From the NCBI GenBank assembly GCA_903904195.1, contig CAIVBM010000008.1, forward strand, positions 1 through 34,200: DNA of 34,200 bases, read 5' to 3'. A program made the position numbers and the translations under genes. Within the stretch, counting starts at the first letter, position 1. Each line of letters begins with the position of its first letter. The notes under the pieces were generated by a model. The model was not told the origin of the DNA and did not search any database. It saw only the letters and a list, made by a program, of their open reading frames with translations. This DNA comes from an uncultured bacterium (GTDB lineage: Bacteria; Patescibacteriota; Minisyncoccia; Phycocordibacterales; UBA9973). This document shows positions 9,304 to 14,404 of this stretch, in pieces.

Positions 9304-9462
9304 TTTGAAAATTTTAAATAGCTTCTTTTAAAAAGCAATCTATCTGGCGAAGCTTTGGGAGCGTTCTGCTCGTCGATCAAGAAAATAATAAATGGATTAC
9401 CATTTTTATTTTCTAATCTCCTGCGCAAGGCTTTTTAAAAGAACTATTTTAAATTTTTTAAA
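9304..9462. repeat. Structured palindromic element family 1, copy 1 (atpE-atpF spacer)
   Basis: Terminal IR AAATAGCTTCTTTTAAAAAGC/GCTTTTTAAAAGAACTATTT and two internal hairpins; reverse complement aligns with 14260-14394. Confidence 0.92.
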
Positions 9463-9471
9463 TATAAACAA

Positions 9472-9933
9472 ATGGATTCAATTATATCTACATTTCACAT
9501 AGACTGGAAAATCATTGTTGCTCAAGCGATAAACTTTGTTATTGTTTTTGTTGTTTTATATATTTTCGCTTTAAAGCCACTTTCTAAATTGATGGCAGAA
9601 CGCGCAGAAAAGATAAAACAAGGTTTAGTTGATTCAAAGAAAGCTAATGAATTATTGCAAAAAGCTGGTGAAGAATATAAGGAAAACACAATTAAACTTC
9701 GAAAATTTTCAGTAGATGCTCAAAAAGAACTTCAAAAAGATTTGGAAAAATTAAGAGCAGAAAATATAGAAAGGATAAAAAAAGACGAAGAGGAATATAA
9801 AAAGAAGAGAATGGCGCAAATGGAATTAGACAAGAAAGCTTTAATTGAGTCGGCCACAAAAGAAGTCATATCTTTGGCGATGCTTGCCACAGAGAAATTA
9901 ATTAGTAGTAAGAAAGATTTAAATAATTTATAG
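9472..9933 (+). CDS. atpF: ATP synthase Fo subunit b
   Basis: N-terminal TM (QAINFVIVFVVLYIFALKP), ERAEKI, coiled coil; operon position. Confidence 0.92.
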   Translation: MDSIISTFHIDWKIIVAQAINFVIVFVVLYIFALKPLSKLMAERAEKIKQGLVDSKKANELLQKAGEEYKENTIKLRKFSVDAQKELQKDLEKLRAENIERIKKDEEEYKKKRMAQMELDKKALIESATKEVISLAMLATEKLISSKKDLNNL

Positions 9934-9944
9934 AATATATTTTA

Positions 9945-10355
9945 ATGTCAGTAACATCAAACAATGACATAGCTCGCGCTATCTACCTTATGTCCAAAGA
10001 TAAGAGTAGTTCGGAGCAGAAAAATATATCTGAAAAAGTGGTTAAATTTTTATTTAAAAAAAGATTATTGTCAAAAGCCCCCGATATATTATTACGGCTT
10101 AAGAAAATAATAAATGGTGAGGAGGGAAGAATAGAAGCGAAAATATCAAGCGTAGAAGCCCTCAGTCATCAGACAAAAACATCCTTGGAGCAAGCTTTAA
10201 AAAAACGTTATTCCGTAAAAGAAGTTACTTTAAAAGAAAATATAGATAAAAAATTATTAGGTGGAATAAAAATAGAAGTGGATGACGAAGTAGTTGACCT
10301 TTCAGTCAAAAATAAAATTAATAAATTACAAGAATATTTAACAAAGACCGTATGA
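9945..10355 (+). CDS. atpH: ATP synthase F1 delta subunit (short form)
   Basis: C-terminal [26 protein letters not shown]; operon position. Confidence 0.9.
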
Positions 10356-11854
10356 ATAGCAATACAATCGTAGAAAACTTAAAAAAAGAGATAGAAAACT
10401 TTTCACTTCAAATGAAGGTTGAAAAGGTGGGTAAAGTCGTTGAGGTTTTTGATGGTATTGCGAAAGTTTCTGGACTTTCTGATATCAAATCTTCTGAAAT
10501 GGTGACTTTTCCAAACGGTGAGACAGGAGTAGCACTCAACCTCGAAGAAGATGCAGTCGGAGTTATTATCCTTGGTGATTTTTCTAAAATAAAAGAAGGT
10601 GATGAAGTCAAAGCAACAGGAAAAATTCTTGAAATTCCAGTAGGAGACAGTATTTTAGGCCGTGTAGTAAATGCTATCGGAGCGCCTATTGATGGTAAGG
10701 GAGCTATCAAGGCTTCAAAGACATATCCAATTGAAAAAGTGGCTCCAGGAGTCGTCACCAGACAGGCTGTGGATCAAGCCGTCGCTACTGGTATCAAAGT
10801 TATTGATGCCATTATTCCAGTCGGACGTGGACAACGTGAACTCATCATCGGCGACAGACAGACAGGAAAAACAGCTATCGCAATAGATGCTATTTTAAAC
10901 CAAAAAGGCCAAAACATGATTTGTGTTTATGTTTCTATCGGACAAAAAGATTCAAAACTTCGTAAATTAGGAGCACGATTGGAAGCTGGTGGTGCTATGG
11001 ATTACACAGTCATAGTTTCTGCCGGAGCATCTGAAGCAGCATCTATGTCATACATCGCTCCGTATGCTGGAGTATCTATTGCAGAATACTTTATGGATCA
11101 AGGAAAAGATGTGCTCATTATTTACGATGATCTTTCAAAGCACGCCGTGGCTTATCGTGAAATCTCTCTTCTCCTTCGCCGACCACCAGGACGTGAAGCA
11201 TATCCAGGAGACGTTTTCTATTTACACTCTCGTTTATTAGAACGAGCTTGTAGACGAAATGCTAAATATGGAGGTGGTTCTATCACTGCACTTCCTATAG
11301 TAGAGACACAAGCCGGTGACGTGTCTGCATATATTCCTACGAACGTTATTTCTATTACTGATGGACAGATTTTCTTGGAGACAGATCTTTTCTACAAAGG
11401 TATTCGTCCAGCAGTCAACGTCGGTCTTTCCGTCTCTCGTGTTGGTTCTAGTGCGCAAATAAAAGGAATGAAGAAAGTTGCTGGAACATTAAAACTTGAC
11501 CTTGCGCAGTTCCGTGAACTTGAAGCGTTTGCTCAATTCGGTTCAGACCTTGATGAGTCCACAAAGAAACAGCTTGAGCGTGGTAAAAGAGCTGTTGAAG
11601 TTTTGAAACAGCTTCAATATTCTCCTATTAAAATTGAGAATCAAATCGTTACTTTGTACGCTCTCACCAAGGGTTATATGGATGATGTTGCAATTGATAA
11701 GATAAAAGAATTTGAAAATGGACTTGTGGAATATTGTGAACGTCATGCAAAAGTTTTCTACAAAGAAATCAAAGAGTCCAAGATGTGGACAGACAAAGGT
11801 GAAATGGAATTAAAAAAGGCTATTGCGGATTTCAAAGTAGGCTTCAGTAAGTAA
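10352..11854 (+). CDS. atpA: ATP synthase F1 alpha subunit
   Basis: [38 protein letters not shown]. Confidence 0.99.
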
Positions 11855-11862: not shown

Positions 11863-12774
11863 ATGGCAGGGACAAAAGAAATCAAAAGAAGAATAAAGAG
11901 TGTGAAGAACACAAAAAAGATCACCAAAGCGATGGAGCTGGTGGCTGCTAGTAAGATGAAGCGAGCCGTTTCTTCTACTCTGGCTTCACGTTTATATGCA
12001 GGATATTCTTCTGAAATTCTTTCTTCTATAGCAAAAAATATCGAGGAAAATTACCACCCGCTTTTCACTGAAAGAGAAAAGAAGGGTGAAGAGAAAAAGA
12101 ATGTTTTACTCGTGCTTATTACTTCAAACAGAGGTTTGTGTGGAGCTTATAATGCGCAAGTTATAAAGAAAACCATTGCATTTTTAAAAAGTCAGAATAT
12201 AAATTTGGAAGTTGTTTCAGTCGGTAAAAAAGGAGATGTGGCAATGCGCAGACTAGGCATAAATGTTATCGCTTCTTTTACAGATTTGAGCGACAAGATT
12301 TCTTTATCTGAAATTCTTCCAATTTCAAAATTAACAATAGACGAATATACACTTCTTCATTACGATAAAATTTTAGTGGCTTACACTGATTTCGTTTCAG
12401 CTTTGACTCAAAGACCTAACATTAAACAAATCCTCCCCGTTTCTAAAATGAAAGTACAAGAACTGATAGATAATTTAGAAAAAGATAAATCCGGAGAAAA
12501 AGCAGAAGACAAAAAAGTAAATTATCTGATAGAGGGGGACATGGAAACACTTATCGGGTCACTTGCGGAAAAGATAACGAGGATGCAAATATATCAAATG
12601 TTTCTAGAATCAAATGCTTCAGAACAATCCAGTAGAATGATCGCCATGAAAAACGCCTCAGATGCTTCAGGAGAAATGATAGATGATTTGACTCTAATGT
12701 TTAACAAAGCAAGACAAAGCAACATTACAAGAGAGATATCGGAAATAAGCGCAGGTATGGCAAGTGTAAGTTAA
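11863..12774 (+). CDS. atpG: ATP synthase F1 gamma subunit
   Basis: KITKAMELVAASK, SNRGLCG, RQSNITREISEI. Confidence 0.98.
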   Translation: MAGTKEIKRRIKSVKNTKKITKAMELVAASKMKRAVSSTLASRLYAGYSSEILSSIAKNIEENYHPLFTEREKKGEEKKNVLLVLITSNRGLCGAYNAQVIKKTIAFLKSQNINLEVVSVGKKGDVAMRRLGINVIASFTDLSDKISLSEILPISKLTIDEYTLLHYDKILVAYTDFVSALTQRPNIKQILPVSKMKVQELIDNLEKDKSGEKAEDKKVNYLIEGDMETLIGSLAEKITRMQIYQMFLESNASEQSSRMIAMKNASDASGEMIDDLTLMFNKARQSNITREISEISAGMASVS

Positions 12775-12797
12775 TGATAGTATATTATAAATATGAA

Positions 12798-12875
12798 GCA
12801 GAAGTTACTTTTTAGAATGGTCTGGCCGGGATAGGGACCCGGAGAACCGAGGACCTTATAAAAAGTAACTTCTGC
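12798..12875. repeat. Long hairpin element with GGGACCC-containing core (family 2, copy B; atpG-atpD spacer)
   Basis: Perfect 17-bp IR GCAGAAGTTACTTTTTA/TAAAAAGTAACTTCTGC, then GGTC/GACC and inner CCGGG/CCCGG. Confidence 0.85.
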
Positions 12876-12889
12876 GAAATAAAAAAATT

Positions 12890-14254
12890 ATGAAAAAAAC
12901 AGGTACAATCAAAAAAATAATCGGGCCGGTCGTAGACGTAGATTTCGGTAATGAAAAAGAAAATCTGCCAGACATTTACACAGCATTGGCGGTGATGAAT
13001 GGTCAGAAGAAAATAATTCTAGAGGTGGAACAGCACCTAGGTGGTGGAATAGCGCGAGCTGTGGCCATGGACACTACTGATGGTTTATATCGTGGAATGG
13101 AAGTTATAAACACTGGTGCTCCCATATCTGTACCTGTGGGTAGCGCTACTTTGGGGAGAATTTTTAATGTTCTTGGTGATGCTATAGATGATGGCAAGCC
13201 TATGTTAAATGATAAAAAATTGCCTATTCACCGCAAGGCTCCGGAATATGTGGCTCAAGCAACTAAAGTTGAAATTCTTGAAACAGGTATTAAAGTTATT
13301 GATCTTATTTGTCCTGTTTTAAAAGGAGGAAAGGTGGGACTCTTTGGAGGTGCTGGTGTCGGTAAGACTGTTATCATCCAAGAGCTCATCCATAACATCG
13401 CATCAAATCACGGAGGATATTCTGTTTTTGCCGGAGTTGGCGAGCGTACTCGTGAAGGTAATGACTTATATCATGAAATGAAAGATTCAGGTGTGCTTCC
13501 AAAAGTCGCCATGGTTTTCGGACAAATGAATGAACCGCCAGGTGCTCGTATGCGTGTGGCTCTTTCCGGTCTTACAATGGCCGAATATTTCCGAGATCAA
13601 GAAGGCAAGGATGTGCTCTTCTTTATAGATAACATCTTTCGATTCACACAGGCAGGTTCTGAAGTGTCCGCTTTGCTCGGCCGTATTCCTTCAGCTGTGG
13701 GTTATCAGCCTACACTTAGTACGGAAATGGGAATCTTGCAAGAACGTATTACTTCTACCGATAAAGGTTCCGTTACTTCCGTTCAGGCTGTCTATGTGCC
13801 AGCCGACGATTTGACTGACCCAGCTCCAGCTACGACTTTCGCTCACTTGGACTCTACTGTGGTTTTGAATCGTTCACTTACTGAAATTGGTATTTATCCG
13901 GCTGTGGATCCTCTAGATTCTTCTTCTACAATTCTTGATCCAAACATCGTAGGAGCGGATCATTACAATGTTGCTCGTGAAGTTCAGCGTGTTCTTCAGC
14001 GTTACAAGGATTTGCAAGACATTATCGCCATCCTCGGTATGGAAGAATTATCCGAAGCTGACAAAGAGCTCGTGGCTCGCGCTCGTAAAATACAGAAATT
14101 CCTTTCTCAACCAATGTTCGTGGCTGAACAGTTTACTGGTACAAAAGGCCAATATGTTCCTCTCACAGAAACCATTCGTTCATTCAAGGAAATTTTGGAA
14201 GGCAAGCATGATGAAAAGGCGGAGAATGAGTTTTATATGAAGGGTGCTCTTTAA
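12890..14254 (+). CDS. atpD: ATP synthase F1 beta subunit
   Basis: [34 protein letters not shown]-equivalent EELSEAD. Confidence 0.99.
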
Positions 14255-14404
14255 AAATTAAATAGTTCTTGAGAAAAGCCTTGCGCAGAAGCTTAGAAAA
14301 TAAAAATGGTAATCCATTTATTATTTTCTTGAGCGACGAGCAGTTCGCTGGCGAAGCAACGCCCAGATAGATTGCTTTTCGAGAGAAGCTATTTGATTTT
14401 TAAA
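14250..14404. repeat. Structured palindromic element family 1, copy 2 (atpD-atpC spacer, inverted relative to copy 1)
   Basis: Reverse complement of 9316-9449 with substitutions concentrated in paired positions. Confidence 0.92.

Follow-up and report, generated by a model that had tools for sequence, protein, structure and literature searches.

A large family of hairpin-shaped repeats with a three-way-junction core in Patescibacteria, represented by two inverted copies in an atp operon

The atp operon studied here carries two copies of one structured element, about 86% alike. Both come from a large and hitherto undescribed family of hairpin-shaped repeats that occurs in one group of bacteria with tiny genomes (Patescibacteria). 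The pair are members of a superfamily with at least five subtypes. The family has multiple copies and a patchy distribution among genomes, occupies spacers of all kinds, and is under selection for its fold and for the strand of that fold. We tentatively read the element as a non-autonomous, recombining palindromic repeat of REP/MITE-like type, restricted to this lineage, with the single-strand fold as the selected feature; we give this reading a probability of about 0.45. The fold may serve as the recognition structure for a putative trans-acting factor that copies or maintains the elements, while hairpins in operons would be tolerated and might serve as RNA structures, either intercistronic or terminal.

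The window (the whole stretch of DNA analysed, 34,200 nucleotides) comes from a CPR (Patescibacteria) bacterium, as the original prediction held. ORFs and Pfam matches give the operon order a, c, b, delta, alpha, gamma, beta, epsilon. Copy 1 lies in the c/b spacer (9304-9471) and copy 2 in the beta/epsilon spacer (14255-14412), where its outer arm overlaps the atpD stop codon and the RNA fold pairs 14253 with 14401 (Table 1). The predicted presence of two inverted copies was confirmed by direct reading of the sequence and by a repeat search of the window, which returned inverted repeats I1 (arms 9346-9456 and 14253-14363, 111 nt, 86% complementary) and I2 (arms 9309-9347 and 14363-14401, 39 nt, 85%). 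The same search found I4 (9303-9336 and 9430-9463), the arms of copy 1 itself. Covariance model R1 scored copy 1 at 127 bits (9321-9446, minus strand) and copy 2 at 127.7 bits (14263-14389, plus strand). Folding against shuffled sequences gave z = -5.75 and -6.07 for the two copies, values equalled by none of 200 shuffles.

Table 1. Features of the two atp-operon copies and their neighbouring genes (window positions)
Feature	Position	Strand	Basis
Copy 1, entire hairpin element, atpE-atpF spacer	9303-9463	-, antisense to operon	I4, R1 score, fold
Copy 1 P1 5' arm (modelled part 9430-9445)	9430-9463	-	repeat arms, fold, alignment
Copy 1 junction C (9429), P2 5' strand UUGC (9425-9428), conserved internal-loop GCA (9422-9424)	9422-9429	-	alignment A2 columns 18-25, sequence read
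Copy 1 long-form P2b hairpin; tandem G.A at base, conserved U.G pair	9372-9421	-	fold, alignment
Copy 1 internal-loop GA (9370-9371), P2 3' strand GCAG (9366-9369), junction strand (9362-9365)	9362-9371	-	alignment
Copy 1 P3 region	9344-9361	-	fold, comparison between copies
Copy 1 conserved junction strand AUAGAUU	9337-9343	-	invariant alignment columns
Copy 1 P1 3' arm	9303-9336	-	repeat arms, fold
Copy 2, entire hairpin element, atpD-atpC spacer	14253-14401	+, sense to operon	I1 and I2, R1 score, RNA fold
Copy 2 P1 5' arm (modelled part), tandem G.A internal loop	14264-14279	+	fold, alignment
Copy 2 junction C, P2 5' strand UUGC (14281-14284), internal-loop GCA (14285-14287)	14280-14287	+	sequence read, alignment
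Copy 2 long-form P2b hairpin	14288-14337	+	fold, alignment
Copy 2 internal-loop GA, P2 3' strand GCAG (14340-14343), junction UUCG (14344-14347)	14338-14347	+	alignment
Copy 2 P3 hairpin CUGGCG/CG(C)CCAG, conserved AGC in loop	14348-14366	+	fold, alignment; 6/6 pairs covary
Copy 2 conserved junction strand AUAGAUU	14367-14373	+	alignment
Copy 2 P1 3' arm	14374-14401	+	repeat arms, fold
atpE (c subunit), upstream of copy 1	9091-9303	+	PF00137, E 1.5e-18
atpF (b subunit), downstream of copy 1	9472-9933	+	PF00430
atpD (beta subunit), upstream of copy 2	12890-14254	+	PF00006
atpC (epsilon subunit), downstream of copy 2	14413-14862	+	PF02823

The repeat unit comprises the entire hairpin, 120-180 nt long, in which two AT-rich arms (16-45 bp) form a long closing stem, P1, topped by the conserved core. 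This core, present on one strand only, is a three-way junction: P2 has a GCA/GA internal loop and leads to a variable arm, P2b, and P3 has an AGC(A/U) loop. The arm of variable length, 10 to about 110 nt, sits at one position of the fold, and conserved G.U pairs, tandem G.A and invariant junction and loop nucleotides recur. It is the core that is conserved and not the ends, the opposite of what a transposon with terminal inverted repeats shows, and this counts against the repeat reading.

Covariation was present in every helix. In alignment A3, 90.5% of cells were paired versus 73% in shuffles, and both sides had changed in 31 of 48 pairs; alignment A7 gave 94% versus 63% (41-49% in slid controls), with both sides changed in 40 of 48 pairs. 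Across 51 distinct copies of the genus P3 is CUGGCG/CGCCAG and covaries at all six pairs, and a P2 pair goes from G-C to U-A in five. In another family of the order, position 83 of the AUAGAUU strand covaries with position 109 (U-A to C-G). The mismatches identify the strand (G.U 131 versus A.C 25; G.A 116 versus C.U 5), and in 87 of 91 copies the forward strand had the greater stability, or in 85 of 91 with DNA parameters. The covariation, strand asymmetry and stability comparison thus strongly support the predicted three-way-junction fold under selection, for one strand. Two of the three compensatory stems first proposed stood, namely the base of the long hairpin (A-U to C-G) and the closing stem (A-U to G-C); the third, "GAA/TTC to GTT/AAC", does not correspond to the family's P3 helix. 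Copy 1 is an odd member: its P3 5' strand and junction are altered (CUCCCA versus CGCCAG, and AACG at 9362-9365 where the family has UUCG), so that the family helix is broken and a shifted hairpin takes its place.

The element matched no family in Rfam 15, which bears out the view that it was not a known one. BLAST found six copies of the atp subtype in the source genome (0.68 Mb), and the broad covariance model R2 found 16 at E <= 1e-3. Counting the source genome throughout, R1 matched 40 of 61 genus genomes (1-10 copies where matched), and R2 matched 38 of 40 genus genomes (1-23 copies), 70 of 151 order genomes (1-27 copies) and 5 of 151 phylum genomes. The distribution is patchy even inside taxonomic families of the order. 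R2 had no match in 81 of the 151 order genomes, many of them at 100% completeness, and the element is therefore not essential.

Among 84 distinct copies, those between co-directional genes were antisense in 31 cases and sense in 16; 17 separated convergent genes, 14 separated divergent genes and six had just one neighbouring gene. Apart from shared synteny, no gene recurred next to them. One spacer holds three subtypes adjoining each other. At 42 atpD-atpC loci of the genus, 14 contained a superfamily member, 16 had a spacer of at most 18 nt and 12 had other sequence, much of it unrelated palindromes; 6 of 32 atpE-atpF loci had a superfamily member. In some relatives the atp spacers are 0-5 nt long or hold unrelated palindromes instead of the element. 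With copy number varying and sites filled or empty among relatives, the element behaves as a repeat family, as had been proposed. In the filled/empty comparison no very close relative had an empty site that would date an insertion, and no autonomous, ORF-bearing version was seen at the inspected loci; both points count against the repeat reading.

Comparison of orthologous spacers shows that copies persist in place across species and change far less than the flanking genes. Identity was 82-95% between same-spacer atp copies but 31-55% at four-fold sites of atpD and atpA; over the last 60 atpD codons it was 75-82%. The atpD-atpC element aligned to that of the source genome in the same orientation in two species (90-95%) and only when inverted in seven (85-92%), showing that a copy can flip in place, most simply via recombination between its own arms. 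Copies also swap parts among themselves by gene conversion: in the source genome all four long copies have one P2b apex in common, and the atpE-atpF copies of two other genomes, G018 and G070, combine another apex with the same P1. The opposite orientations had been taken as a sign of mobility. Because both sites are shared across species with saturated synonymous sites and the atpD-atpC copy has flipped in several, they do not mark two recent insertions; the atp copies are old spacer residents. Between the orthologous copies of G018 and G070, P3 shows two double compensatory changes and hardly anything else has changed, a further observation against the repeat reading.

The main rival, which we consider possible but doubtful, is a host-functional structured RNA. 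The cassette would be transcribed on the forward strand, from its own AT-rich flank or within a longer transcript; P1 would be a stem for processing (by RNase III, for instance) or termination, and the core a protein-binding, catalytic or signal module, such as a small RNA or a signal for operon "punctuation" or processing. Such an RNA would show the constraint in place described above, with an element more conserved than the ATP synthase genes around it and compensatory change between orthologues. The conserved G.U and G.A pairs, invariant nucleotides and variable-length arm also occur in many structured RNAs, and the element is near-universal in the genus by the broad model. ATP synthase needs subunits c and alpha/beta in the highest copy number, and the two atp sites follow these. 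However, the element was not found in many complete genomes of the order, its copy number spans 1 to 27, antisense placement relative to flanking genes is twice as frequent as sense placement, and some copies lie between divergent genes. Since the same site holds it in either orientation, it cannot act through host mRNA in all cases. Moreover, promoter-like matches in the region were at chance level (19 found, 19.3 expected) with no consistent promoter seen, and no single-stranded variable segment could serve as a guide.

A DNA-level role for the host, in which a replication, topology or recombination protein binds a cruciform or single-strand structure, seems improbable. Orientation to genes would then not matter, in agreement with the retention of either orientation at one site and with occurrence in every kind of spacer; the REP/BIME elements of E. 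coli bind gyrase and IHF. There is no positive finding for this role, however, the order is patchily occupied, and the G.U and G.A asymmetry means that only one cruciform strand would fold properly.

Equally hard to sustain is mobilisation as single-stranded DNA, REP-like, by the HUH/Y1 (RAYT or IS200-like) transposases common in these genomes. Y1_Tnp genes occur in 48 of 61 genus genomes (4-5 copies in the source genome), have HUH and Y motifs and are flanked by hairpins on both sides; the strand-specific fold, favoured with DNA parameters too, recalls IS200/IS605 ends and REPs. Yet the hairpins adjoining Y1 genes do not resemble the element, and across the 151 order genomes Y1 was present in 41 of 70 with the element versus 48 of 81 without it (table 41/29/48/33, odds ratio 0.97). 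No Y1 match was found in genomes G013 (23 copies), G055 (23), G192 (19), G129 (18), G032 (17) and G012 (12). Copy orientation obeys no replication-strand rule, given the mixed strands of the 20 listed copies on one 680 kb contig of G094 and the flank GC skew of 59 copies (31 C-rich, 14 G-rich). TnpB scored below the cut-off or was not found in five of five high-copy genomes, and the genome with 27 copies yielded no reverse transcriptase. The expected co-occurrence with such enzymes thus failed to appear: neither a transposase nor a reverse transcriptase, TnpB or Ro gene follows the distribution of the element. That no mobilising enzyme was found, Y1/RAYT being independent of the element, also counts against the repeat reading. 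No target-site duplication was readable at the element ends, because these are AT-rich and palindromic. Ordinary intrinsic terminators or chance palindromes are close to refuted by the conserved core, with its invariant nucleotides and with P2 and P3 covarying across an order; A runs and T runs do border the long hairpins and some copies separate convergent genes, but others separate divergent genes and a simple terminator scan of the region did not call the elements.

Among known systems, the structured RNA motifs of Rfam (riboswitch-like or ribozyme three-way junctions, e.g. hammerhead and purine) share a compact junction, invariant nucleotides, covarying stems and a variable-length arm, but the element matches no Rfam 15 model, is multi-copy, occurs in either orientation, and its closing stem is very long. 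Its junction sequences do not fit the consensus hammerhead core. Integron attC sites (the Vibrio cholerae repeats of about 125 nt) are imperfect palindromes recognised as a folded single strand, with stem structure more conserved than sequence. The element is similar in these conserved stems, in palindromy and in length; attC sites, in contrast, lie in one orientation in cassette arrays and have R'/R'' core sites, whereas the element lacks such sites and is dispersed in both orientations between housekeeping genes.

Bacterial MITE-like repeats (Correia/NEMIS, ERIC/IRU, RUP, BOX and Rickettsia palindromic elements) are hairpin-shaped, about 100-170 nt long, located in or between operons and patchy in copy number, and their way of spreading is mostly unknown. 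The element shares their size, shape, location and patchiness. MITEs keep terminal inverted repeats while the interior drifts; in the present family conservation is highest in the interior and the outer arms vary by site, with no related transposase found and no target duplication readable. Like REP/BIME elements, the family consists of interspersed extragenic palindromes, conserved across species, in either orientation, in mosaic clusters in some spacers and with a one-strand fold. REPs are simple hairpins of 20-40 bp, tagged at one end by GTAG or CGTC; the element has 120-180 nt, a covarying three-way-junction core, no end tag and no Y1/RAYT tracking it. One study describes REPs as conserved and often without a dedicated transposase, which holds for some whole superfamilies, and as thought to act as RNA hairpins, namely terminators and stabilisers (PMC3733652). 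The element resembles REP/BIME and MITE-like repeats, and is larger and more elaborate.

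The F-type ATP synthase operon of the window lies on the plus strand, with open reading frames, in this order, for the a, c, b, delta, alpha, gamma, beta and epsilon subunits and Pfam matches for 8/8 proteins. Copy 1 of the element fills the spacer between the c and b genes (atpE and atpF), and copy 2 fills that between the beta and epsilon genes (atpD and atpC). The original prediction had described the two as an inverted pair; a repeat search of the window recovered this pair and its continuation (see the table), and each copy by itself was found to form a long hairpin. When the entire assembly (54 contigs, 679 kb) was searched with copy 2 by BLAST, six copies were returned. 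Together with a motif scan, this search distinguished four long forms with a modelled part of 126 nt (two on C8, the contig of the window, and one each on contigs C45 and C49) from two short forms of 88 nt (contigs C3 and C44), in which one arm is no more than a hairpin of 4 bp. Copy 1 departs from the rest of the family: the 5' strand of its arm P3 is altered, and it forms a shifted hairpin. The third stem for which compensatory change had been proposed (GAA/TTC to GTT/AAC) did not correspond to the helix of the family.

All six copies of the source genome were predicted to adopt the same fold on the forward strand, and for each of them the reverse strand was the less stable (forward versus reverse, for example, -52.3 versus -42.2 and -66.7 versus -55.4 kcal/mol). 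Compared with shuffled sequences, the two window copies had folding z-scores of -5.75 and -6.07. The forward-strand fold comprises the closing stem P1, which is long, AT-rich and contains G.A mismatches, a single unpaired C, the arm P2 (UUGC/GCAG), an internal loop with GCA facing GA, the arm P2b of variable length, the junction strand UUCG, the arm P3 (CUGGCG/CGCCAG) with a loop containing AGC, and the junction strand AUAGAUU. A K-turn was considered for the GCA/GA loop and dropped, because most copies, inspected by eye, had no G-A dinucleotide after the 3-nt bulge.

Coordinates of the element copies and of other features (window positions, or contig and position where a contig of the source genome, marked C, or of another genome, marked G, is named; for copies 1 and 2, the strand is the one called forward)
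Feature	Position	Strand	Detail
Copy 1	9303-9463	-	atpE-atpF spacer
Copy 1, hairpin arms	9303-9336 and 9430-9463	-	repeat search
Copy 2	14253-14401	+	atpD-atpC spacer
Inverted pair, arms	9346-9456 and 14253-14363		111 nt, 86% complementary; repeat search of the window
Inverted pair, continuation	9309-9347 and 14363-14401		39 nt, 85%; repeat search of the window
Subtypes D and E	C22:8300-8416, C33:44941-45059, C45:34606-34725, C50:3115-3232, C50:19611-19717; C2:1092-1197, C26:22114-22220, C31:11599-11716, C50:17143-17260		
Family B	12798-12875		atpG-atpD spacer
Family C	4445-4539 and 18878-18973		
AT-rich hairpin	18226-18291		arms of 30 nt, 93% complementary, 6 nt apart
Y1 (HUH) transposase-like gene	C14:10005-10688	+	208-227 aa across four genes
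Y1_Tnp matches	C32:9438-9674, C29:21715-21948, C27:22125-22364	-	
Three elements in one spacer	locus L154 (G075:C57), 1329-1742		
Element and RNase P RNA gene	locus L115 (G171:C5), 1093-1403 and 1501-1587	opposite	RF00010, 130 bits

A narrow covariance model (R1) was built on the six copies, and gathered 51 distinct copies from the genomes of the genus. In this alignment (A3), 90.5% of the cells held standard pairs, compared with 73.0% in shuffled alignments, none of which (0/500) equalled it, and with 40-48% when the partners were slid by 1-3 columns. Both partners had changed in 31/48 pairs; P3 was 98% paired and covaried at 6/6 pairs, and P1 covaried at 13/16. A more diverse alignment of 34 sequences (A7), drawn from several subtypes and taxonomic families, was 94.0% paired versus 62.7% in the shuffles (0/500 as high) and 41-49% in the slid controls, with both-sided changes at 16/16 pairs of P1, 4/4 of P2, 14/22 of P2b and 6/6 of P3. 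As each alignment was fitted to the model, it leans towards structure, and the shuffle test is inflated by the relatedness of the sequences; the low slid controls and the variety of pair types in single columns nevertheless argue for a real signal. In these larger alignments, all helices covary above the controls.

The non-canonical pairs were strand-specific. In A3, there were 131 G.U pairs versus 25 A.C pairs and 116 G.A pairs versus 5 C.U pairs; the corresponding numbers in A7 were 62 versus 9 and 33 versus 5. With strands oriented by the model, the forward strand was the more stable in 87/91 distinct copies under RNA parameters and in 85/91 under DNA parameters. These pairs and stabilities therefore indicate that one strand is under selection.

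The same architecture with different junction sequences was found in other species and taxonomic families, forming a superfamily. Subtype 2 has AGCA (or AGGA) and A-UGC (or A-UCC) as junction strands, which base-pair together and show covariation; subtype 1, to which R1 is restricted, shows covariation of position 83 with position 109. At its smallest, P2b is a 4 bp hairpin capped by a GACG-type loop, and at its largest a branched insert of about 110 nt. A palindrome inventory of the source genome revealed two more subtypes, D and E, which share with the window copies P2, the internal loop, the GACG-loop hairpin and the AGC-loop P3 but differ in the junction strands; R1 saw them on the expected strand only with its filters off. 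A broad model (R2) was built on 34 sequences of subtypes 1, 2, 3 and E; subtype D, which R1 had misaligned, was omitted, and its match to R2 is weak. In the source genome, R2 found 16 copies at E <= 1e-3 and 23 at E <= 0.1. With this genome counted at each level, R2 matched 38/40 genomes of the genus (1-23 copies each), 70/151 of the order (1-27 copies each) and 5/151 of the phylum. R1 matched 40/61 genomes of the genus and 16/151 of the order; one genome of a different taxonomic family held nine R1 copies, the best at 123 bits. The genus tallies for R1 and Y1 include one unpublished genome (one R1 match, two Y1 matches), from which no sequence was taken and on which no claim depends.

The atp spacers were mapped in the atp regions of 40 more genus genomes. 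Among 42 atpD-atpC loci, 14 carried a member of the superfamily; at 16 the spacer was no longer than 18 nt (at several of these, 0-3 nt), and the other 12 contained different sequence, some of it unrelated palindromic repeats; at the atpE-atpF junction, a member was present at 6/32 loci. Empty sites, which had been suggested as something to look for in relatives, thus exist beside filled ones, and both sites are polymorphic. When filled and empty spacers were compared with a view to a target-site duplication, the ends proved AT-rich and palindromic, so that any direct repeat would look the same as the inverted one. The two junctions also attract or tolerate many kinds of hairpin: CTAGG-type heptad arrays and other unrelated hairpins were observed in relatives at atpD-atpC (e.g. 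loci L068, L072, L086 and L090) and at atpE-atpF (e.g. loci L079, L088, L090, L099 and L100).

Where an atp spacer is occupied, the element is the same and P1 is of the same type. The atpE-atpF spacer of the source genome was 82-83% identical to those of two relatives (G018 and G070); for its atpD-atpC spacer, identity to the counterparts in 12 species was 81-95%. Four-fold degenerate sites in the same genomes were 38-55% identical in atpD and 31-51% in atpA, and the last 60 codons of atpD showed 75-82% nucleotide identity. The low identity of the flanks therefore does not suggest that the region was transferred recently, and the element evolves more slowly than the adjoining genes. Between G018 and G070, the atpE-atpF copies are nearly alike apart from two double compensatory changes in P3. 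The best alignment of the atpD-atpC copy to that of the source genome was inverted in seven species (G018, G070, G007, G005, G065, G062 and G026) and in the same orientation in G013, G010 and three species with subtype 3; G032 had a short form in sense orientation. The asymmetries of P1 invert jointly with the core, and the simplest reading of the flipped copies would be in-place inversion by recombination between the arms. The P2b apex is common to the four long copies of the source genome, and the copy 1 orthologues in G018 and G070 have a different apex; this pattern points to gene conversion among the copies of one genome.

The genomic positions of 84 distinct copies were compared. In co-directional spacers, 31/84 were antisense and 16/84 sense; a further 17/84 lay in convergent and 14/84 in divergent spacers, and 6/84 had a neighbour on one side only. 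Apart from genes explained by shared synteny (atp, ftsK, fpg, trmH, rpsT and others), none recurred as a neighbour among the 84 copies. Some spacers contain two or three adjacent elements of different subtypes; at one locus (L154), a long subtype 2, a short subtype 1 and a subtype D element were observed within about 420 nt of one spacer. At another (L115), the element and an RNase P RNA gene lie about 100 nt apart on opposite strands. The outer part of P1 is site-specific in sequence and up to 30-45 bp long, with runs of A and runs of T at the flanks. A promoter and terminator scan gave no more promoter-like matches than expected by chance; the -10-like hexamer upstream of copy 1 lies within the atpF coding sequence and is loosely kept in orthologues.

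We regard as solid the existence of the family, the fold and the strand on which it forms, the distribution, and the behaviour of the copies at the atp sites. The reading that we tentatively prefer, at a probability of about 0.45, is that the element is an interspersed selfish repeat, similar to REP/BIME and MITE sequences, whose fold is selected as a recognition structure. This structure would be recognized by a putative trans-acting factor, and the host may use the hairpin within its operons. The repeat-like traits are the patchy distribution, 1-27 copies per genome, the presence in all kinds of spacer, the clusters of subtypes, the filled and empty sites and the exchange among copies. Traits of a functional structure are a conserved, covarying core, the retention of wobble and G.A pairs, compensatory change in copies that stay in place, and a conservation exceeding that of adjoining essential genes. 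A close rival, possible if the less probable of the two, is accordingly a structured RNA of the host: a covarying core, compensatory change in place and conservation above that of essential neighbours are typical of functional structured nucleic acids, although the patchiness, the 1-27 copies and the occurrence in all kinds of spacer are typical of selfish interspersed repeats.

In a further, unlikely reading, the superfamily would represent a new patescibacterial class of structured RNA, with a three-way-junction module set within RNase III-type processing stems. The module would cut or end transcripts in place, either by itself as a ribozyme or through a dedicated nuclease acting on it, and would "punctuate" operons in the manner of tRNAs in mitochondria. 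It would also copy itself into new spacers, a selfish RNA-processing signal on which the host has come to depend. None of the known ribozyme models in Rfam 15 matched the element. At gathering thresholds, Rfam 15 found three tRNAs and nothing else in the whole window; in a permissive E-value scan, the best match to copy 1 scored 19.7 bits against a threshold of 38, and elements at 20 loci from other taxonomic families were without a match in an E-value scan. The original prediction of no known family therefore stands at Rfam 15 thresholds. A full-text literature search brought up no description of an element of this kind in the Candidate Phyla Radiation, Patescibacteria, Parcubacteria or Nomurabacteria.

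Several known element types were compared and set aside. The element does not fit a MITE derived from a DDE transposon, in which conserved terminal inverted repeats are common to all copies: here the inner P1 is only semi-conserved, the outer arms vary by site and the core is conserved. One account (PMC3733652) defines REP sequences as palindromes of 20-40 bp that bear GTAG or CGTC as a tag on one end. The unit here is 120-180 nt long and its GACG is located in a loop, not at an end, which does not fit the REP/RAYT type. A TnpB/IscB guide RNA and a Y RNA bound by Ro60 (Rsr) were rejected, with PF07282 above the cut-off in 0/5 and TROVE (PF05731) in 0/5 high-copy genomes. A dependence on reverse transcriptase, as in retrons, was also rejected: RVT_1 was found in 4/5 of the high-copy genomes tested but not in G094, a genome with 27 copies and 100% completeness, so the co-occurrence suggested earlier did not hold. 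Large serine recombinases (Resolvase, PF00239), considered for an invertible segment, were present in 5/5 genomes with the element and 5/5 without. Viral contigs searched with the exact subtype 1 pattern and GenBank phages searched by blastn gave no match. As for a full-length version whose ends would flank a transposase gene, no split copy with an insert was found in the source genome, and no recurrent adjoining ORF among the 84 copies or the clustered loci. None of the candidates tested (Y1, TnpB, RVT_1, TROVE and Resolvase) fits as the reader of the structure.

It is improbable that the element is a site read by the host at the DNA level. The predicted forward-strand preference under both energy models fits RNA and single-stranded DNA equally; in the two window copies alone, the forward strand had no advantage under the DNA model. 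Single-strand transposition driven by Y1 is slightly less probable still. Y1_Tnp matches (IS200/RAYT-like) occur in 48/61 genomes of the genus and 89/151 of the order, but Y1 was independent of the element in the 151 order genomes (both in 41, element only in 29, Y1 only in 48, neither in 33; odds ratio 0.97), contrary to the suggested co-occurrence with Y1/RAYT, and genomes with 17-23 element copies had no Y1 match. The Y1 genes of the source genome are on other contigs, with other hairpins beside them. Each of these four genes was observed to be bracketed on both sides by its own short hairpin, and at the one on C29 about 40 nt of the end of the upstream gene is repeated downstream, as after an insertion. 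IS200/IS605-type transposition was rejected because strands are mixed on one 680 kb contig of G094, with no replication-strand rule; the flank skew was 31 versus 14 of 59 copies, and in the source genome two copies were on the G-rich and four on the C-rich strand. Plain intrinsic (Rho-independent) terminators are highly improbable, as the terminator scan does not call the elements and 14/84 copies lie between divergent genes.

Other palindromes were observed in the source genome. Family B has at least six copies (C8, C31, C38, C45 and twice on C7), with AT-rich arms of the same style and the same G.A mismatch but a different GC-rich core; its site in the window shows a peak of sequencing depth, as expected for a repeat. 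Family C has about nine copies, and a near-perfect AT-rich hairpin also lies in the window. A kinship of families B and C with the core of the element was not borne out, R1 scoring both strands alike at 10-21 bits. A search for sequencing runs containing the source genome listed six DNA runs and no RNA run, which bears on expression in neither direction; four of the DNA runs were compared as contigs (Logan). The contigs of these four independent runs stop inside the hairpins, at their centres (9395, 9405, 14322 and 14328), so elements of this kind may break up assemblies of these genomes. No contig spans an inverted or an empty form, which bears neither way on inversion in the population; a single joint of low depth (9319 to 12888, depth 2.6) was set aside.

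Patescibacteria have tiny genomes with scant non-coding DNA, and we know of no genetic system for the phylum. The source genome (0.68 Mb) nevertheless carries at least 16 copies of one elaborate fold, along with two further families of hairpins. The copies of the fold vary less than the adjoining ATP synthase genes, so something appears to read the structure; what this reader is, like the mode of spread, we infer. If the element acts as RNA, it adds a large motif with good support, whose covariance model is ready for Rfam-type curation, and would offer a handle on operon processing in Patescibacteria. If it is a mobile element, the conservation of a folded core instead of ends points to an undescribed way of spreading. 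Interspersed palindromic repeats are a known kind of element; new here, with no matching enzyme, are a core with a covarying three-way junction, the conservation of the interior while the ends vary, and several subtypes across an order.
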